DNA from: an uncultured Actinomycetes bacterium
Lineage (GTDB): Bacteria; Actinomycetota; Actinomycetes; Mycobacteriales; Jatrophihabitantaceae
Reading direction: 5' to 3'
DNA length: 64,000 nt
Assembly (NCBI GenBank): GCA_963708805.1
Contig: CAVPUA010000003.1
Location: 750,455-814,454 of the forward strand
Made by a program: the position numbers and the translations under genes. Positions 52,062 through 62,243 of the stretch are shown here, piece after piece. How positions within the stretch are numbered: position 1 is the stretch's first letter; each line of letters begins with the position of its first letter. Under the pieces are notes generated by a model. That model had not been told where the DNA came from and did no database searches. It worked only from the letters and a program-made list of their open reading frames with translations.

Positions 52062-52523
52062 GTGACCGGCAGCCATGGCGCCGCCGGGTCGCAGCCATCC
52101 AGCTGGAGGTCGATCGTGCCCGTGTCATGCCCCCCGTCACGCCCGGCCAGCCGCCTGGCGGTCGGCGATCGCGTGATCATCGGCGATGGCCCCGCCTCGG
52201 GGATGGTCGGTGAGCTCGCGGGCGTCGACTTCGACACCGACTTCGCCCAGGTCCGCGTGATGATCCCCGTTCCCTGGGGTCTGCGACCGGGCACGGCCGT
52301 CGTCACGGCCGGCGCACTGCGTCCAGCCCGTCCTCGGCTCGACGAGCTGATCGAGCCGGTTGCCATGCCCCGGCGGGGACGCCCGCGGGTCATCAGCGAG
52401 GAGACCGTCGAGAAGATCGAGCGGCTGTACGAGACCGGGATCTACTCGCACGCCGACATCGCCGGCATCGTCGGCGTCAGCAAGAGCAGCGTGACGTCCT
52501 ACCTCAAGCGGCGCAGCGACTGA
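52062..52523 (+). CDS. hypothetical protein with C-terminal helix-turn-helix; start uncertain
   Basis: 153-aa ORF. The C-terminal GRPRVISEETVEKIERLYETGIYSHADIAGIVGVSKSSVTSYLKRR resembles resolvase/Hin-type HTH. Confidence 0.5.
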   Translation: MTGSHGAAGSQPSSWRSIVPVSCPPSRPASRLAVGDRVIIGDGPASGMVGELAGVDFDTDFAQVRVMIPVPWGLRPGTAVVTAGALRPARPRLDELIEPVAMPRRGRPRVISEETVEKIERLYETGIYSHADIAGIVGVSKSSVTSYLKRRSD

Positions 52524-54038: not shown

Positions 54039-54247
54039 CTCGTTCCCCGGTGTTCATCCAGTCGTTCGAGGGTCAGCGCCATGGGCGACGACCCGTTTGC
54101 GGGGCTGTTGCGCGATCCCGACCTCGGAGTGCTGAAGGCGATGCCCGTGCAGGAATCCGGTCCGCCGCGCCGGGCGCTGCGCGGGATGGGCCGCTGACGG
54201 GACGACGTCCTGACCGATCTCGTCGGCGGCACGGCATAGTTGGGGTC

Positions 54248-55651
54248 ATGGCTCTTCGTGGTGGTGCCGTCCCTTCTCGTTCGCCCCGAGCTCCACGGGA
54301 GACCGACCCGTTCGCGGGCATGGCCAACCCGGCGCTCGAACGCGAGATCAATCCGCCGATGCGTGCTCTGGCCCACGATGCCGTGCCGCCCGACGTGGCC
54401 TACCAGTTGGTGCACGACGAACTCCTGCTCGACGGCAGCGCCCGGCTGAACCTCGCGACCTTCGTCACCACGTGGATGGAGCCGCAGGCGGCCCAGTTGA
54501 TGGCCGAGTCGCTCGACAAGAACATGATCGACAAGGACGAGTACCCGCAGACGGCGGCGATCGAGAACCGGTGCGTGGCGATCCTGTCGAACCTGTGGCA
54601 CGCGCCTGACCCCGAGGTCGCGACCGGTTGTTCGACGACCGGGTCCAGCGAAGCCTGCATGCTGGCCGGCATGGCCCTCAAGCACCGCTGGGCCGCTCGG
54701 GTCGGCGCCGACTCGGGCCGCAAGCCCAACCTGGTGATGGGTGCGAACGTCCAGGTCTGCTGGGAGAAGTTCTGCCGATACTGGGACGTCGAACCGCGTC
54801 TGGTACCCGTCGAGGGCGATCGGCTGCACCTGGGCGCCGAGCAGGCAGTGGCCCGGTGCGACGAGAACACCATCGGCGTCGTCGCCATCCTCGGCTCGAC
54901 CTTCGACGGTAGTTACGAGCCGGTCGCCGAGATCTCGGCCGCTCTGGACGAGCTGGTCGCGCGGGGCGGACCCGACATCCCGATCCATGTCGACGCGGCA
55001 TCGGGCGGCATGATCGCCCCGTTCCTCGACCCCGATCTCGTGTGGGACTTCCGGCTGCCGCGTGTCGCGTCGATCAACACGTCCGGACACAAGTACGGAC
55101 TGGTCTACCCGGGCGTCGGCTGGGCCGTCTGGCGTGACGCCGAGGCGCTGCCGCAGGAGCTCGTGTTCGACGTCAACTACCTGGGCGGCAACATGCCGAC
55201 GTTCGCGTTGAACTTCTCGCGTCCGGGCTCCGAGATCATCGCGCAGTACTACACGTTCTTCCGCCTCGGCCGCGCCGGCTATGTCGCTGTCCAACAGGCG
55301 TGCCGGGACGTGGCGACCTCACTGGCCGAGCAGATCGCGAACCTCGGCCCGTACCGGTTGATCACCCGCGGCGACCAGTTGCCGGTCTTCGCGTTCACCA
55401 CCGATCCGGACGTGCAGGCCTGGGACGTCTTCGCGGTGTCGCGGGGGTTGCGCGAGCACGGGTGGCAGGTCCCGGCCTACACGTTCCCCGCCGAGCGAAC
55501 CGATCTCGCCGTGCTGCGAATAGTGTGCCGCAACGGCTTCTCGCGCGACCTGGCCGACCTCTTCCTGCGTGACCTGATCGCCGTCACCGACACGTTGCAG
55601 ACCGACGTCGCCAAGGTCGGGAGCAGCGGCCCGCCGTCGTTTCATCACTGA
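54248..55651 (+). CDS. gadB: glutamate decarboxylase
   Basis: ATG 54248 within track ORF 54050..55651 gives 467 aa. LLLDGSARLNLATFVTTWME and the PLP-lysine motif SINTSGHKYGLVYPGVGW are present. Confidence 0.9.
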   Translation: MALRGGAVPSRSPRAPRETDPFAGMANPALEREINPPMRALAHDAVPPDVAYQLVHDELLLDGSARLNLATFVTTWMEPQAAQLMAESLDKNMIDKDEYPQTAAIENRCVAILSNLWHAPDPEVATGCSTTGSSEACMLAGMALKHRWAARVGADSGRKPNLVMGANVQVCWEKFCRYWDVEPRLVPVEGDRLHLGAEQAVARCDENTIGVVAILGSTFDGSYEPVAEISAALDELVARGGPDIPIHVDAASGGMIAPFLDPDLVWDFRLPRVASINTSGHKYGLVYPGVGWAVWRDAEALPQELVFDVNYLGGNMPTFALNFSRPGSEIIAQYYTFFRLGRAGYVAVQQACRDVATSLAEQIANLGPYRLITRGDQLPVFAFTTDPDVQAWDVFAVSRGLREHGWQVPAYTFPAERTDLAVLRIVCRNGFSRDLADLFLRDLIAVTDTLQTDVAKVGSSGPPSFHH

Positions 55652-56157: not shown

Positions 56158-57258
56158 GTGGACTGTACGAGGGCGCTCGCGCAGACGGGCGTGGCTGTGT
56201 CGGGCATCGCCCTGGCCGGTCTGGTCGTGCTCGTGGTCGGCGTCGCCCTGACCGTTGCCGCTCGCCACCGAACCACCGGGCGAGCACACCATGCGCTGGT
56301 GATCGGGATCATCCTCGTGCTGTTGCTGGCCCTCGACCCGCGATCCAGCGGCGCGGCGACATCCGCGTCCTGTGCCCAGTCTCCGGCGTCCCCGCCCGCG
56401 TACGCGGTGACCCGGCCGGTGTCGAGCTGTGACCGTGTCACGCTCAGCGCCGACCGCGCCAGTGCCGAACTGGGCTCGCCGATCACGTTCGTCGCCTCGG
56501 CGCCGACCGGTCTGGCGCCCGGCGTGGTGACGTTCTGGGACGGGACCCGGACGCTGGGGACGGTCGGCGTCCAGGCGGGGTCGGCCGTCCTGTCGATCGA
56601 TGGCCTCGGTGTCGGCGCGCACCGCGTGTTCGCGACGTTCACTCCGGTGGTCACGGCCAGCTGCGTACCCGATGGCTCGGTCGCGCTGATCGTGATCGTC
56701 AATGGCACCACGGCGGGCTCGGGCGGTAGCTCCGACGGCGGAGACGTACAAGCGATCCAGGCCAGGATCGGCGCGGGGATTCTTCTCCTGCGCAGTCCCT
56801 ATGACGCCGAGCATCCGCTGGACCTCGGTGTCTTGCGATTGGCCGGATCGGCTGATCAGTACGTCGGGAGGGCTCAGTTCGGAGACGGCTCCGTCTCCGG
56901 CAGTCTCTCGATCATCGACACCCGCGGTGGTGACGCCGGGTGGACGGTGTGCGTCCAGGGCGGCGACCTCGGCGATCCAGCCGGCGACCTCGTGTCCGGA
57001 TCCAACTTCGGCTTCATCAACGTCGCAGCCATCAGTTGGCCCGGTGGTCCTCGGGTGACAGTGGGTGACCGGGCAGGGCCGACGACGGCTGTGGCACCGG
57101 GTACCGCCATCGGCCTCGGTGCCGGCCCGCAGGTGATCGCGCGCTCGGTCGGCTCGGGGGCGGGCACGGTCGGGCTGAGCGGTCTTGTCACCCTGGTCGC
57201 CCCGCTTAGCAGCGCGCCCGGGACGTACTCGGGAACGCTCACGTTCACCGTCGGATGA
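56158..57258 (+). CDS. secreted/surface protein with Ig-like domain and WxL-like C-terminal domain (tentative)
   Basis: 366 aa with N-terminal hydrophobic segments. VVTFWDGTRTLGTVGVQAGSAVLSIDGLGVGAHRVFATFT resembles a bacterial Ig-like repeat. IIDTRGGDAGWTV and the terminal GTYSGTLTFTVG resemble the WxL domain. Confidence 0.45.
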   Translation: MDCTRALAQTGVAVSGIALAGLVVLVVGVALTVAARHRTTGRAHHALVIGIILVLLLALDPRSSGAATSASCAQSPASPPAYAVTRPVSSCDRVTLSADRASAELGSPITFVASAPTGLAPGVVTFWDGTRTLGTVGVQAGSAVLSIDGLGVGAHRVFATFTPVVTASCVPDGSVALIVIVNGTTAGSGGSSDGGDVQAIQARIGAGILLLRSPYDAEHPLDLGVLRLAGSADQYVGRAQFGDGSVSGSLSIIDTRGGDAGWTVCVQGGDLGDPAGDLVSGSNFGFINVAAISWPGGPRVTVGDRAGPTTAVAPGTAIGLGAGPQVIARSVGSGAGTVGLSGLVTLVAPLSSAPGTYSGTLTFTVG

Positions 57259-57319
57259 CCGAACGTGTAGCTTGATCATCAAGACGCCTGGTCATGTTTG
57301 ACGAGCCGCTTGGCTGCTT

Positions 57320-58453
57320 TCAGCCGCGCCGGATCGCGGCCTGCTCGGGCGTGCGGGCGACGAACTGTGGGCCGGTGACCTCGGTGTCGTAGTAGCGGTG
57401 GAACACCGGCGTCAGCGCGCCGCTGATCGGCGGGACGATCCAGCTCCAGTCCGCGGGGCACCGCCGACCGGCCCGCTCCTCCTTCTCGACGTGGGTCAGG
57501 AAGCGGCGCGACTCGGTGTGGTGATCGGCGATCGTCACCCCGGCCTGCGCGAACGAGTGCAGTACGGCCCGGTTGAGCTCGATCACCGCGCGGTCACGCC
57601 ACAAGGTCTGCTCGGATGACGTGTCGAGGTGCAGCCGCTCGGCGATCGTCGCCGTCAGGTTGTAGCGGTCGTGGTCGGCCAGATTGCGGGCGCCGATCTC
57701 GGTGCCCATGTACCAGCCGTTGAACGGCGCCGAGGAATAGGTGACGCCCCCGATGCGCAGCGCCATGTTGCTGATGGCGGGCACGGCGTGCCACTTGAGT
57801 CCCAGTTCGGCGAACCACGCGTGATCGGGGTGCGACAGGTGCACCTCGAGGATGTCGGCGTCCGACAGCTCGAACAACGTCGGCGGTTCGTCGCCCGTCT
57901 CGATGACGAGGGGCAGCACGTCGAAGGCCGAGCGGACCTCGGGGGCCCGCCACCCCAGTTGCTGCACCCGCTCGGTGAACCGCGCATACCGGGGATCGCC
58001 CAGCGGGCCGGCGTCCTCGGTGGGGTAGCCCGCATAGCGGATCAGCTGCTCGTTCCAGATCGTCGGTCCGGGCTGCCCCGGTTCGTCCGGCGCGAAGACG
58101 CTGACCACCGGTCGGATCCGGCCGCCGTTGGCCGCGATCCGCAGGTGGGCCCGGCAGTGATCGGCGATGCCTTCCGCGCTTGTGACATTGCGCAGGTCGC
58201 GCACGTACAGGCTGTTCCAGTAGAGCCGGCCGATGCAGCGCGCGCTGTTGCGCCAGGCCACCCGGCAACCCCAGATCAGTTCGGAGTTGGTGTGCCGGTA
58301 GGTACCGGTCTCGAGGATGGACGTGGCCACCTCGGCGGTGCGCACGACCCGGTCTCCGGCGGTCGGGTTCTCGGCATGGAACTGGTCGACGAACTCGAGC
58401 GCTTCGTGGAGGTCGACCCCGGACGATCGTTCGGTTGCTGCCTCTGCGTGCAC
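57320..58453 (-). CDS. nos: nitric-oxide synthase oxygenase (bacterial NOS)
   Basis: Haem-thiolate motif WRNSARCIGRLYW, plus GWYMGTEIG, ADHHT and WIVPPISG blocks. GTG 58453 (377 aa) lies 2 nt after the upstream stop. The track ORF extends to 58846 over the upstream gene. Confidence 0.9.
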   Translation of the reverse strand: MHAEAATERSSGVDLHEALEFVDQFHAENPTAGDRVVRTAEVATSILETGTYRHTNSELIWGCRVAWRNSARCIGRLYWNSLYVRDLRNVTSAEGIADHCRAHLRIAANGGRIRPVVSVFAPDEPGQPGPTIWNEQLIRYAGYPTEDAGPLGDPRYARFTERVQQLGWRAPEVRSAFDVLPLVIETGDEPPTLFELSDADILEVHLSHPDHAWFAELGLKWHAVPAISNMALRIGGVTYSSAPFNGWYMGTEIGARNLADHDRYNLTATIAERLHLDTSSEQTLWRDRAVIELNRAVLHSFAQAGVTIADHHTESRRFLTHVEKEERAGRRCPADWSWIVPPISGALTPVFHRYYDTEVTGPQFVARTPEQAAIRRG

Positions 58454-58455
58454 GA

Positions 58456-60045
58456 TCAGCCGACCATCTCGAATTTGTCGAAGTGGATCTTGGCACGCGG
58501 AACGCCGCTGTGGACCAGCTTGCTGACCGTCGTCGAGATCATCGGATCCGGCCCCGAGACGAGCACATCGACCCCCATCGTCGCCCAGTCCCGCAGTCCG
58601 GGCACGATCTCCTCGACCCGTCCGTGATAGCCCTCGTAGGCCGGATCGTCGGACAGCACGGCGTGCACTTCGGCGTTCAACCAGTAACCCCCGGCGTGGA
58701 TCAGCTTGGCCAGCTTGTCGACGGAATAGGTGTCGTCTCGAGATCGGCCCCCGACGAACGTGTACAGCTGCGGTGCGTCGGGCCAGCCGAGGATCGACTC
58801 GACGACGGCCGTGATCGGTGCGGCCCCGGTGCCCGACGCGACGCACAACAGGCCGCCCGGAACGGTGCCGGGTTCGACCACGAGATCGTTGCCCCTCGGC
58901 GGCCCGAGCGTGAGACGGTCACCCGGCTGGGTGTGGGCGACCAGCGCCGACGAGACGCCGGACCCACCGAGCGCGCGGACTTGGATGTCGAAGGTGTTGT
59001 CGGCGCGCGGCGCGCTCGCGATCGACATCGAGCGCCACTCCCGGCGGAACGCGGGCACCTCGAGCGTGAGGTACTGGCCGGCCTTGTACGGGTACGGCGC
59101 GTCGGGCTGGATGCGAAGGACGGCGAAATCGCGCGAGAGTCGCTGATGATCGAGGACCTGCGCGCCCCACGACGTGGGCTCGCCCGCGTGCTGCATGGCG
59201 CCGTCGATCATGATCGTGGCGAGCCGCGTGTAGCTGCCGACGATGGCCGCCTCGTGTTCATCGGTCCACTTGTTGCCGGCCAGCCGCTTCCAGGCGCTGA
59301 TCATGGCGGCGCCCGCGACCTCGTAGTGCCGGGGTTCGACGTCGAACTTCCGGTGATCGGCCCCGAGCTGTTCCAGGTGCGCGGTCAGGCCCTGAGGATC
59401 GTCGGCGACCACCCACTGGACGACGGCCCGGCCGAACTCCTGACGCTGCCGGGTCATGCTCGACGGGAACATGAACGGAGCCTCGGGCACGCGCAGGAAC
59501 AGCTCGGCGTAGAAGTCCGAGATCAGCCGGTCGGCCCGGTCGCTGACGAACGAGAACGCTTCGCGCACCAGCGCCGGATCGAAGTCGCGCTGGTTGGCCG
59601 GGAAGACGGGCTTGGGCGGGGGCGGCGGTGTCTGGGCGACATAGAACTCGGGCAGGTTCGGAGGCGGAAGGCGTCGTTGCGCATTGCCGACGACCAGCTC
59701 GCCCGGGGCGGCGATCGGCGGGGCCGGGGCAGCCGGTACCGGCGCCGGTGCGACGGCGGCGGGCGGTGCAGGTAGCTCGGTGTCCGCGTGGGGTGGGCCG
59801 GGCACCTCGGCTTCGAACGACTCCGGCCTCGGGTGCGCGCTAAGCGACGTCGTCCAGCTCGTCGACCCGTCCGGCGACGGTGAATCGGTGGGCGGTTGGC
59901 CCGCCCCGCGTTCGTGTCCGTGCTGCGGCGCCGAGTAGTCGTCGTCGAGGAGCCATCGCCGTAGTGCACCGCGCAATCCCACCGGACACCCCCTGTTCAG
60001 GACCGCGCGCAACGCACTTGGCCTCATACCACGCGTGTCGGCCAC
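58456..60045 (-). CDS. globin-domain / FNR-type FAD-NAD(P)H oxidoreductase fusion (flavohaemoglobin-like) with Pro-rich N-terminal extension; start uncertain
   Basis: Globin-like FYAELFLRVPEAPFMFP and LGADHRKFDVEPRHYEVAGAAMISAW. FNR motifs RSMSIAS (RxYS-type), GGSGVSSAL, the NAD(P)H loop ASGTGAAP, and SGPDPM. The first ~170 aa are Pro/Ala rich. Confidence 0.75.
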   Translation of the reverse strand: MADTRGMRPSALRAVLNRGCPVGLRGALRRWLLDDDYSAPQHGHERGAGQPPTDSPSPDGSTSWTTSLSAHPRPESFEAEVPGPPHADTELPAPPAAVAPAPVPAAPAPPIAAPGELVVGNAQRRLPPPNLPEFYVAQTPPPPPKPVFPANQRDFDPALVREAFSFVSDRADRLISDFYAELFLRVPEAPFMFPSSMTRQRQEFGRAVVQWVVADDPQGLTAHLEQLGADHRKFDVEPRHYEVAGAAMISAWKRLAGNKWTDEHEAAIVGSYTRLATIMIDGAMQHAGEPTSWGAQVLDHQRLSRDFAVLRIQPDAPYPYKAGQYLTLEVPAFRREWRSMSIASAPRADNTFDIQVRALGGSGVSSALVAHTQPGDRLTLGPPRGNDLVVEPGTVPGGLLCVASGTGAAPITAVVESILGWPDAPQLYTFVGGRSRDDTYSVDKLAKLIHAGGYWLNAEVHAVLSDDPAYEGYHGRVEEIVPGLRDWATMGVDVLVSGPDPMISTTVSKLVHSGVPRAKIHFDKFEMVG

Positions 60046-60225
60046 AGACGGTAAGACACGCGCACCAGTGAGTAACAGGTTACAGGCGAATAACGAGAAG
60101 AAGGAAGATCAACAGCTGAACTGTGCGGACCGGACCAAGATCAACTCTCCGGAGCGGTCCGCGCTGCCAGTTTCCGACATGTTAGATTCGAGTTAAGTCG
60201 GGGGCCGTCGACCGAACGGACTTCC

Positions 60226-60771
60226 ATGCGCTCGACCACCCTGCGCGCCTTGCTCGCTCTGAGCGTGACGGCTGGCGTCGTCGCCATCGGCTTCGTCGCG
60301 AACGGCTTCGTCGCGAACGGCGTCGTCGCCCGCTCACCGCACTCCGCTCCCGCGAACGCCCCCGCCGCTGTCGCGACGCCGGTCAACGGCGAGACGGTGG
60401 GCGTGGATCCGCTCGTGAGCGAGGGCCAACTGATCGCGTTCAGCGTGGACGGGTTCGCACCCGGGGCGGTGGCGACACTGACGCTGGAATGCCAACCGCT
60501 CGCCGCGACCTCCATTCGGGTCGACGCCGCCGGTACGGTGCGAGTCAGCTTCACGGTGCCGGCGCTGGCGCCCGCCGGATATCTCCTCGCGGTCACTGGG
60601 CCGTCCGCCGCGGTGCCGGGCGGCACGTCGGCGGGCGTGGTCGACGCGACGATCCCCCGTGCGGCGTTCTATCCGTTCGAGGTCACCGCGACCTCGACCC
60701 GCGGCTCGTCCGCCGGTCACCAGAACGGTTCATCAGTTCACGGCCGTTGCACCGGTGTCGTTCTAAAGTAG
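60226..60771 (+). CDS. secreted hypothetical protein
   Basis: 181 aa with a signal-peptide-like N-terminus carrying the short repeat GFVANGFVANGVVA and a beta-rich body. Confidence 0.45.
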   Translation: MRSTTLRALLALSVTAGVVAIGFVANGFVANGVVARSPHSAPANAPAAVATPVNGETVGVDPLVSEGQLIAFSVDGFAPGAVATLTLECQPLAATSIRVDAAGTVRVSFTVPALAPAGYLLAVTGPSAAVPGGTSAGVVDATIPRAAFYPFEVTATSTRGSSAGHQNGSSVHGRCTGVVLK

Positions 60772-60929
60772 GCGCCGTCACCGCGGCCACCTCCTCCGAA
60801 ACTGTCCGGTGATTCCCCCAGCGGCGCGTTCCCGTTCACCTGCGGGGGTTGGCGGGGACGCGCTGTGGTGGGTTCCGCGAAGAGGGTGTCGCCGGGCGGC
60901 ACCCGGCATCGGGCCGCGTCGGCCGAGCG

Positions 60930-62243
60930 TCAGGCCGCGTCGGCCGACGCGGTTGCGATCCGGTTGCGGCCGTCGCTCTTGGCTCGATACAGCGCGGCGT
61001 CGGCTGCGTGCATCAGCTCGGTCACCGTCCCGCCGCCATGCGGGTAGGTGGCGATGCCGATCGAGACCGAGAGATCGTTGATCAACCGCGGTCCGTCCGG
61101 GTGCTCGGCGTAGGTGTCGAGCACGGTCACGCCGTGTCGGATCCGCTCGGCGACCGTGTGCGCCTCGGACTCGCGGGCGCGCGAGAGGAGCACCACGAAC
61201 TCCTCGCCGCCGAACCGCCCGACGGCGTCGTTGTCGCGGACTTCGCCGGTGATGCAGTTGGCCACCGCGCGCAGCACTTCGTCGCCGTTGAGGTGACCGT
61301 GCTGGTCGTTGATCCGCTTGAAGTGGTCGAGGTCGATCATCAGCACGCTCAGGGTCGCGTCGGCGCGGTTGGCAGCTTTGGCCAGCTCGCGACTCGCGCG
61401 ATAGTGCCAGCTCGCCGCGTTGAGGACGCCCGTCTTGTGGTCGAGGATCGCGGTCGTCTCGAGCTCCCGGTTGAGCAGGCCGCGGTGCAAGATCATCAGC
61501 GGCGGGAGGATCGCGATCGACACCGCGGGCAGGGTCACCATGACGAGCGCGACGATCACCGCGAGGCAGAGGGTCGCGACCTCGAGGAAGTTGTCCGGCC
61601 AGCTGCCGATCACCTCGTGCACCGAATGCGTACGGGCCCAGATGGTGGGGACGACGAGTACGGCACCGATGAGGAAGTAGACCGCCAGCGAGGCGGACAG
61701 GGCCAGTATCCCGTCGGTTCCGCGGTCGGTCGCCTGCTTGATGCCGCTGACGCCGAACAGGTTCAGGACGGCTCGCGCGAGATAACACGTCAGGATCACG
61801 AAGCAGGTGTTCATGATCGAGCGGTACAGCGTGATCTCGCGCAATCGGTACCAGCTGCGCACACTCAACTGCAGGTACAGGAGGACGACCAGAGCGGCGA
61901 CGAGGATCGGCGGCAGCAGCAGTACGCCGGCGAATGTCCAGACCGACGTCAAGTTGATGTGTGCGGTGTCGGTGAGTTGTCGCCGCATGCGTTCGGTCTG
62001 TCGACCGATCTCGGCCTGGGCGATGCCCAGCGCCGTCAGGCCGGCGAGCACCACGAGATCGTGCCATTGGACTGTGGTGTCCCTCGCAATGACCAAAGTC
62101 GACGCGACAACGGTGGCTTCGACCAGAAGAATATAAGCGACTATCGACCGCGGTTGCGCCCATAACGCCCACGAAAATCGTCGGCGCACCACAGAAGAGG
62201 GCCAAGGGCCCTCGCTCGCGGAACTTAAATCAGTAATACTCAT
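60930..62243 (-). CDS. membrane-bound diguanylate cyclase (GGDEF domain)
   Basis: Intact 437 aa with about 7 N-terminal TM helices. The GGDEF domain has DHFKRIND and the active site RFGGEEF. Confidence 0.9.
   Translation of the reverse strand: MSITDLSSASEGPWPSSVVRRRFSWALWAQPRSIVAYILLVEATVVASTLVIARDTTVQWHDLVVLAGLTALGIAQAEIGRQTERMRRQLTDTAHINLTSVWTFAGVLLLPPILVAALVVLLYLQLSVRSWYRLREITLYRSIMNTCFVILTCYLARAVLNLFGVSGIKQATDRGTDGILALSASLAVYFLIGAVLVVPTIWARTHSVHEVIGSWPDNFLEVATLCLAVIVALVMVTLPAVSIAILPPLMILHRGLLNRELETTAILDHKTGVLNAASWHYRASRELAKAANRADATLSVLMIDLDHFKRINDQHGHLNGDEVLRAVANCITGEVRDNDAVGRFGGEEFVVLLSRARESEAHTVAERIRHGVTVLDTYAEHPDGPRLINDLSVSIGIATYPHGGGTVTELMHAADAALYRAKSDGRNRIATASADAA

Follow-up and report, generated by a model that had tools for sequence, protein, structure and literature searches.

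Introduction

In the cyanobacterium Synechococcus PCC 7335, a nitric oxide synthase (NOS) termed syNOS fuses a globin, a NOS oxygenase and a diflavin reductase in a single protein (PMC12922734, PMC6104048). Its globin, taken with the FNR domain, resembles Hmp and oxidises the enzyme's own nitric oxide (NO) to nitrate (PMC12922734, PMC9500659). Here we describe a pair of adjacent genes in which the syNOS-like set of modules, a NOS oxygenase, a flavohaemoglobin-type globin and a NAD(P)H-flavin reductase, is likewise complete; the pair lies in a 64,000-nt stretch of contig CAVPUA010000003.1 from an uncultured actinobacterium of the Jatrophihabitantaceae (hereafter the window, whose positions are used below). 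Instead of one fused protein the window pair comprises two polypeptides, its reductase is a single-flavin FNR carried on the globin whereas that of syNOS is a diflavin reductase carried on the NOS, and it has no C2 (Ca2+-regulated), pseudoglobin or flavodoxin module; its host is an actinobacterium. We conclude that this is a real and recurrent gene pairing, in which a NOS is coupled to a globin protein whose predicted function is that of an NO sink or a reductase.

Two further arrangements are relevant for comparison. The NOS of Sorangium cellulosum is, as in the window, a bacterial NOS with an FNR-type flavin adenine dinucleotide (FAD)/NAD(P)H module (PMC9500659). There the reductase is fused to the NOS, whereas the module in the window belongs to a separate protein with a globin haem. 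The Sorangium reductase is also said to carry an Fe-S centre. In the TxtD/TxtE-type pairs of actinomycete biosynthetic clusters, a NOS gene adjoins the gene of a haem enzyme, a cytochrome P450, that consumes its NO (PMC10831120); the neighbour of the window NOS is a globin-reductase and not a nitrating P450, and no biosynthetic genes were found near the window pair or the related cassettes inspected.

The globin-reductase itself (hereafter the partner) invites comparison with flavohaemoglobins of type I, such as Hmp and FHP, and of type II. TyrB10 and GlnE7 serve O2 binding and NO dioxygenation in Hmp. In type II proteins, according to PMC8883573, a D(x)8GxxP motif is fully conserved, and there are two conserved Cys residues (Cys289 and Cys360 of MtbFHb).

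Architecture of the gene pair

The two genes are read from the minus strand of the window, in which the GC content is ~70% throughout. An open reading frame (ORF) of 529 amino acids (aa) at 58456..60045 (-) precedes a second of 377 aa at 57320..58453 (-) in a different frame, and the genes, 2 nt apart, accommodate all modules within 2.7 kb of one strand. An initial reading of the DNA without database searches (the sequence-only reading) had interpreted the first ORF as a Pro-rich extension followed by a globin and an FNR-type reductase, and the second as a NOS without a reductase; Pfam matches agree with this interpretation, and all of the motifs that it quoted are present. The same reading placed the GTG of the NOS gene 2 nt after the partner stop, as is indeed seen in the sequence. 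This junction, TGA-tc-GTG at 58451..58458 (-), consists of the partner stop at 58458-58456, two bases and the NOS GTG at 58453, and its letters read ...GGC TGA tc GTG CAC..., a layout compatible with translational coupling.

The start of the 529-aa ORF had probably been over-called, by 21 codons. Because the N-termini of 97 partner homologues, which start MGLRxALxRWL, correspond to V22 of this ORF, and because a Shine-Dalgarno-like GGGGG run read from the sequence (59989..59993, (-)) lies 7-11 nt 5' of the GTG at 59982, the partner most likely starts at that GTG and not at the GTG at 60045; the ORF stays open back to the latter, the use of which is improbable. On the basis of Pfam and NCBIfam matches and of homologue N-termini, the partner gene thus most likely spans 58456..59982 (-) and encodes 508 aa, comprising the N-terminal extension, the globin and the FNR-type FAD/NAD(P)H reductase.

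The NOS oxygenase gene (57320..58453, (-)) encodes a 377-aa protein that matches PF02898 (NO_synthase) at 492 bits over model positions 6-358 of 362, as a single Pfam domain and without a fused reductase or calmodulin-binding region. An independent gene call in a protein database gives the identical 377-aa NOS (P0121, 100% identity). The haem-thiolate motif WRNSARCIGR occupies aa 67-76, and the further NOS motifs PFNGWYMGTEIG and CPADWSW are encoded within the same interval, 57320..58453 (-). In bacterial NOS an Ile stands by the haem pocket where mammalian NOS has a Val (PMC9500659), and the window NOS has the bacterial-type Ile in PAISNM at aa 225-230. No second copy of either the partner or the NOS gene was found within the window.

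In the 529-aa ORF, Pfam assigned Globin (27.1 bits, aa 213-276), FAD_binding_6 and NAD_binding_1, in that order. An AlphaFold2 model of the partner, built on 46 homologues, reached a predicted local distance difference test score (pLDDT) of 80 overall, with values >85 for residues 135-503 and <50 for residues 15-116. The top matches of this model among solved structures are flavohaemoglobins, aligned over ~400 columns at template modelling (TM) scores of 0.63-0.78; target-normalised, TM is 0.78 for E. coli Hmp (1GVH) and 0.77 for the Malassezia protein (6O0A), and the R. eutropha (1CQX) and yeast (4G1B) flavohaemoglobins are also matched.

The globin domain (aa 136-264; 59191..59577, (-)) is helical in the model across residues 136-264. 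Alignment to R. eutropha FHP (1CQX) and E. coli Hmp assigned TyrB10 (DFYAELF), PheCD1, GlnE7 (TRQRQEF), HisF8 (GADHRKF) and TyrG5 (PRHY), all five of which are retained in all NOS-linked clades. It is followed by the FAD-binding beta-barrel (aa 272-365; 58888..59169, (-)), matched by FAD_binding_6 and carrying RSMSIAS and GGSGVSS (GxxS), and by the NAD(P)H-binding domain (aa 378-503; 58474..58851, (-)), matched by NAD_binding_1 and carrying ASGTGAAP (GxGxxP) and SGPDPM. In RSMSIAS a Met takes the place of the Tyr or Phe of the FNR superfamily, and this residue, M319, is invariant in 46 clade members. The partner therefore has the domain order, the fold, the five globin residues and the GxGxxP motif of type I flavohaemoglobins, and we infer that it binds haem and FAD. 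It differs from Hmp and FHP in sequence (19-21% identity), in having RxMS for RxYS, Asp for Lys F7, Phe instead of Leu at E11 and a CD-E region that is three residues shorter, as well as in its 135-aa N-terminal extension and its linkage to NOS.

The extension (aa 1-135; 59578..59982, (-)) contains 23% Pro, is predicted to be disordered save for a short helix at residues 3-12, and is clade-specific and kept across 97 homologues. Two motifs stand out in alignment A1. The first, MGLRGALRRWLL (59947..59982, (-)), forms the extreme N-terminus, with the consensus MGLRxALxRWL and nearly invariant G2, R4 and W10. The second, GELVVGNAQRRLPPPNLPEFY (59641..59703, (-)), follows ~90 residues later with the consensus GGLVVGxAERRxPxxxLPxFY, and V97, G99, R104, P111 and Y114 within it are invariant or almost so.

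Recurrence of the pairing

A NOS-based genome scan covered the 80 closest NOS loci, in which the partner was then placed by tblastn. A globin-FNR gene lies upstream of NOS on the same strand in 24 of these 80 loci. Three of them (L001-L003, metagenome-assembled genomes (MAGs) of which one is labelled Acidobacteriota and two Pseudonocardiales) have a partner of 72-80% identity directly upstream of NOS, with ~100 nt separating the genes. In group B1 (L004-L007; three Jatrophihabitantaceae MAGs and one uncultured Actinomycetota MAG) the gene directly upstream of NOS encodes a different globin-FNR protein, of 33-35% identity and without the extension, and in the 17 loci of group C (Nocardioides, Aeromicrobium, Kribbella and related MAGs) the order is globin-FNR (30-35% identity), a DivIVA-domain gene and NOS. 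No globin-FNR gene lies in the fetched flanks of the remaining 56 loci, which come from Lentzea, Kutzneria, Amycolatopsis, Actinokineospora, Rhodococcus rhodnii and others.

The closest relatives of the partner are encoded in MAGs that bear the label Jatrophihabitans, Jatrophihabitantaceae or Pseudonocardiales, and the same two-gene cassette as in the window is present in six loci, namely L001-L003, L108, L114 and L115. In L108 (75% identity) the NOS gene begins 2 nt downstream of the partner, at TGA-ac-GTG, while 8 nt separate the two genes in L114 (71%) and 177 nt in L115 (73%). The tight 2-nt coupling of the sequence-only reading is seen in the window and L108 only, and in the other cassettes the spacing ranges from 8 to ~180 nt. 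The flanks of the window, L108, L114 and L115 are mutually unrelated, and the two-gene cassette is their only common element, as would be expected of the functional unit for which the pair had been taken.

Related globin-FNR genes flank NOS in ~30 further loci, and pairs of NOS and globin-FNR genes occur in four layouts beyond the window-type cassette. Six metagenome loci of group B2 (31-37% identity) have globin-FNR followed by NOS within ~25 nt; in six metagenome loci of group A' (core identity 54-58%) the order is reversed, NOS preceding globin-FNR. No NOS was found in three metagenome loci related to group B2. Because the same cassette recurs and related globin-FNR genes flank NOS elsewhere, we conclude that the adjacency of partner and NOS is not due to chance. 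The survey of co-occurrence that had been proposed to check this thus shows, with six cassettes of the same type and 24 of the 80 closest NOS loci, that the pairing is not unique to the window genome. The suggestion that a two-gene pair of NOS and a flavohaemoglobin-like protein had not been characterised before also agrees with our search, in which no description of such an operon in Actinobacteria was found among open-access papers and preprints; an earlier mention elsewhere is possible. What the search did yield was work on syNOS, on NOS-P450 clusters and on type II flavohaemoglobins, along with general reviews.

Two features of the NOS proteins and their loci were observed alongside. A short N-terminal motif, C-P-(V/A)-x-H, occurs in 16 of 80 checkable close NOS homologues (P0124, P0127, P0129, P0130, P0141, P0148, P0154, P0155 and others), ~25-40 residues before the oxygenase domain, and also in the NOS N-termini of L001-L003; it may serve metal binding or dimerisation. 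It is missing from the NOS of the window and of L108 because in these the NOS gene begins directly after the partner stop. In group C (L022, L024, L026, L032, L050, L066 and 11 other Nocardioides, Kribbella or Aeromicrobium loci; for example L026:5807-9149) the middle gene encodes a DivIVA-domain coiled-coil protein of ~200 aa (PF05103, 44-56 bits). The NOS ORFs of L022, L026 and L066 have an N-terminal extension of ~120 aa with hydrophobic stretches resembling membrane anchors, and that of L024 has no such extension.

Phylogeny and probable partner replacement

The globin-FNR and NOS trees that we compared are distance trees and only indicative. In the globin-FNR core tree the window's NOS-linked subclade clusters with stand-alone members of the family; the A' proteins form the sister of that cluster, and B1, B2 and C stand apart. 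The group A and B1 genes are sister clades in the NOS tree, with C, A' and B2 as separate lineages. Between groups A and B1 the partners share only 33-35% identity, and they belong to different globin-FNR clades. The two trees therefore disagree, in that close NOS genes have non-orthologous upstream partners and distant NOS genes have related ones, and this disagreement suggests that the position upstream of NOS has been refilled by a different member of the family, the partner having been swapped. Linkage to NOS extends over five globin-FNR clades, four separate NOS lineages and three gene orders. Taken together, the trees are indicative of a pairing that was formed or refilled several times, and such repetition would argue for selection on the combination of NOS and globin-FNR.

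Placement among the flavohaemoglobins

The description of the partner as flavohaemoglobin-like holds for its fold, but not for its family assignment, since the protein fails the cut-off for Hmp and its FAD motif is R-x-M-S and not R-x-Y-S. Membership of canonical Hmp (type I) is ruled out by a score of 89 against 432 bits and by the RxMS motif. In the neighbour-joining core tree all family proteins are distant from the E. coli Hmp branch. Type II flavohaemoglobins (M. tuberculosis Rv0385, M. smegmatis MSMEG_0719) are, like the partner, actinobacterial two-domain globin-reductases distinct from Hmp. The partner differs from them in its extension and its position beside NOS, and it has none of the features by which PMC8883573 sets type II apart, that is, D(x)8GxxP, the LDH-type motifs and the Cys pair. 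By these published motifs type II membership is ruled out as well, in a comparison made with the mycobacterial homologue P0398. D(x)8GxxP is absent from the partner and from P0001 and P0100, and is present in P0398; the single Cys of the partner is C380, and the position of the mycobacterial CGG cysteine is a Ser in SGPDPM. P0398 (Mycobacterium sp. JS623, 388 aa) is 30% identical to the partner over its full length and has the FP..M..QR and DHRK motifs in common with it.

At E <= 1e-30 a clade profile matched 272 clusters (50% identity) among 1.84 billion representatives, and at E <= 1e-10 it matched 2851; one cluster so matched contains P0398. Judged by sequence, the partner belongs within a broad actinobacterial radiation of flavohaemoglobin-like proteins that includes type II-like members, and is by published definitions neither type I nor type II. 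Among the proteins matched by the profile, P0241 (2461 aa), P0247 (2352 aa), P0298 (1029 aa) and P0382 (910 aa) contain 5-14 tandem stretches matching its globin part and are apparently multi-globin repeat proteins. Many others in the wider globin-FNR family (P0249, P0253, P0258, P0265, P0267, P0275, P0278, P0289 and P0291) have N-terminal regions of 200-320 aa without a Pfam domain, which may be either over-called starts in high-GC DNA or more long N-terminal extensions.

Function of the partner

We give an even chance to the proposal that the pair works as a split counterpart of cyanobacterial syNOS, with the NO made by the NOS being dioxygenated to nitrate by the partner. In the putative mechanism the two genes would form an operon co-producing the NOS oxygenase and the flavohaemoglobin-like protein, and the NOS, supplied with electrons by the partner or by general cellular donors, would turn arginine into NO. 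The FAD of the partner would carry electrons from NAD(P)H to the globin haem, which would bind O2 and dioxygenate NO to nitrate. The outcome would be that arginine nitrogen is routed to nitrate, or that free NO is capped, sparing the producer from poisoning. This proposal draws on the observed domain content and flavohaemoglobin fold, on the nucleotide-binding residues and the haem-pocket residues kept in every linked clade, on tight same-strand linkage, on the recurrence of the pairing and the swapping of partners, and on the precedent of syNOS; from these we infer NO dioxygenase activity, co-transcription and nitrate as the end product. Electron donation to the NOS and NO dioxygenation by the partner could coexist.

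A number of observations weigh against NO dioxygenation as the role of the partner. Over its whole length the protein can be aligned with the Hmp equivalog NF009805, at 89.4 bits against a cut-off of 432, and it is matched better by P0398, the carrier of the type II D(x)8GxxP motif, than by Hmp or FHP. Met replaces the flavin-stacking Tyr of RxYS, the Lys F7 position is an Asp, and the H23 position is an Asp in the HMMER alignment or an Ala in the MAFFT alignment, so that there is no clear Glu H23. Type II proteins also keep TyrB10 and GlnE7, and retention of these two residues is therefore no proof of NO dioxygenase activity; the type II flavohaemoglobins are reported (PMC8883573) to be hexacoordinate D-lactate or disulfide oxidoreductases and not primarily NO dioxygenases. 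The linkage, too, is incomplete. Six relatives of the partner at 52-67% identity (L081, L107, L109, L110/L111 from J. endophyticus, L112 and L116) stand without a neighbouring NOS, and in 51 assessable NOS loci (from Pseudonocardiaceae and others, with an upstream flank of at least ~3.7 kb) no globin-FNR gene was found within several kb. These stand-alone members rule out that the protein is always beside NOS, and the word 'dedicated', which had been applied to the partner on first reading, is too strong.

The partner could instead be a dedicated electron donor of the NOS, with electrons passing from NAD(P)H to FAD and on to the NOS haem, either directly or via the globin haem, in a two-component self-sufficient NOS for which NO dioxygenation is secondary or absent; the module would then be comparable to the FNR-type reductase that is fused to the Sorangium NOS. 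The window NOS has no reductase domain of its own, the adjacent gene brings a complete FAD/NAD(P)H module, and the near-zero spacing or overlap of the genes suits equimolar subunits of a complex. Moreover, a clade-specific disordered extension with two conserved short motifs is the typical layout of a docking peptide, and replacement of the partner at the same position fits a required subunit. A mere electron wire, however, would have no need of TyrB10 and GlnE7, which are kept in all linked clades, and no fusion of NOS with a globin-FNR protein was found among 120 NOS homologues or 10 long representatives of the family. Most of the surveyed NOS loci lack a globin-FNR neighbour. In vivo, bacterial NOS draws on reductases that are not dedicated to it, such as flavodoxins, and the FAD and haem potentials of flavohaemoglobins are less reducing than that of the NOS haem, which would make the transfer uphill; both the promiscuous reduction of NOS and these potentials disfavour a dedicated donor, and we regard this role as unlikely.

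Alternatively, the partner could serve a redox function that has nothing to do with NO, as has been proposed for mycobacterial type II proteins (oxidative-stress defence, or reduction of disulfides or other substrates); NOS would then have landed downstream of it in one sublineage, and the two would be co-expressed with no direct biochemical link. The NOS-linked subclade is nested among stand-alone members next to which a divergent PNPOx-like gene is found, in a conserved housekeeping context. In five of the six stand-alone loci a divergently transcribed PNPOx_N gene (FMN-binding split-barrel) is directly upstream (L107:7179-7889, L109:5152-5832, L110:5176-5826, L112:5210-5812, L116:4212-4721), with a housekeeping context that is partly conserved, and this adjacency suggests a second conserved functional pairing for the partner family. 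The family is also nearer to type II-like proteins than to Hmp, and type II proteins are reported not to be primarily NO dioxygenases (PMC8883573). Accidental insertion is nonetheless hard to square with linkage in five globin-FNR clades, four NOS lineages and three gene orders, the two genes of the cassette move together from one unrelated flank to another, and the type II motif D(x)8GxxP and the Cys pair are absent from the partner. We judge such a role to be quite improbable.

Finally, we consider it very improbable that the globin, instead of removing NO in bulk by catalysis, is a gas sensor or buffer, which senses NO or O2 and regulates the NOS via the reductase or the extension, or which delivers O2 to the NOS. 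In favour of such a role, regulated binding could be mediated by the short motifs of the conserved disordered extension, alternating regulation is described for the globin and NOS haems of syNOS (PMC12922734), and a GGDEF membrane protein is encoded upstream on the same strand. Against it, related cassettes share neither the GGDEF gene nor any other neighbour with the window, a complete FAD/NAD(P)H reductase is typical of catalytic flavohaemoglobins and not of globin-coupled sensors, and the partner has no output domain.

Origin of the N-terminal extension

In the sister clade A', where NOS precedes globin-FNR, the globin-FNR frame is open far into the NOS gene, and there is no start codon from the NOS stop to the globin domain. 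A GTG stands two codons before PRALRWL in five of the five A' loci examined, PRALRWL being the +2-frame reading of the NOS segment VPFGGWY, and ~100 codons past it GERGLVVGEP overlies CPADWSW. A hidden Markov model (HMM) of the window-clade extension scored 12-17 bits on the A' +2 frame and did so in A' only; 86 other NOS genes, read in the same frame and position, gave -5.0 +/- 3.1 (maximum 2.5), and shuffles gave ~-5 +/- 2. The corresponding regions, covering the last 450-480 nt of NOS in the +2 frame, are L082:3476-4118, L084:871-1339, L086:1428-1881, L087:1686-2172, L089:949-1411 and L083:1-250. It is conceivable, at somewhat less than an even chance, that in A' the final 450-480 nt of NOS also encode a homologous extension, apparently from an internal GTG.

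Other searches gave no such signal. An initial three-frame search found no overlap, the signal appearing only with trimmed peptides; no NOS-frame relic was found in the window-clade extension DNA with a NOS C-terminal HMM, and a DNA profile of the extension had no match in NOS genes. Synonymous-codon identity in the putative A' overlap was +0.062 as compared with +0.026 in controls (standard deviation 0.064), and thus not significantly higher. Were the A' overlap real, the extension would have arisen by overprinting, because the NOS C-terminal domain is ancient, and so long an overlap would be a rare bacterial case. It would be a long shot to extend this to an arginine-to-nitrate synthase that is split yet self-sufficient, with a partner that both feeds electrons to the NOS and dioxygenates its NO, and with an extension that is the overprinted 3' third of NOS and now serves as a NOS docking element.

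Genomic neighbourhood

Upstream of the putative operon, on the same strand, lies a gene for a membrane GGDEF diguanylate cyclase (60930-62243, (-)). Further neighbours are a pyridoxal phosphate-dependent (glutamate-decarboxylase-like) decarboxylase gene (54050-55651, (+)) and a small ORF with a resolvase-type HTH_7 domain (52062-52523, (+)). None of the GGDEF gene, a gene for a secreted Ig-like protein, the glutamate decarboxylase-like gene and the HTH_7 ORF is conserved beside related cassettes. A search of 56900-60900 for sigma-70-like promoters and intrinsic terminators found none, a result that is uninformative for an actinobacterium of 70% GC. In the 240-nt region 5' of the partner gene, GTTGATCTT occurs twice, at window positions 60105-60113 and 60137-60145 (-), 23 nt apart, and the two copies are possibly a regulator-binding site.

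Significance

Two questions about bacterial NOS are at stake here, the source of its electrons in vivo and the fate of its NO, and the cassette is a concrete candidate for both. Its presence in the cultured genera Kribbella, Nocardioides and Aeromicrobium makes it genetically testable; carriers include Kribbella sindirgiensis DSM 27082, Kribbella soli KCTC 29219, Nocardioides gansuensis WSJ-1 and Aeromicrobium panaciterrae JCM 16926. For the large actinobacterial family of flavohaemoglobin-like proteins (272 clusters, E <= 1e-30), linkage to NOS is the first genomic clue to function. Should the partner prove to be an NO dioxygenase, Actinobacteria would have built the arginine-to-nitrate logic of syNOS from separate parts, and the 'NOS' of these organisms may be a nitrate-producing or NO-buffered system and not an emitter of NO.

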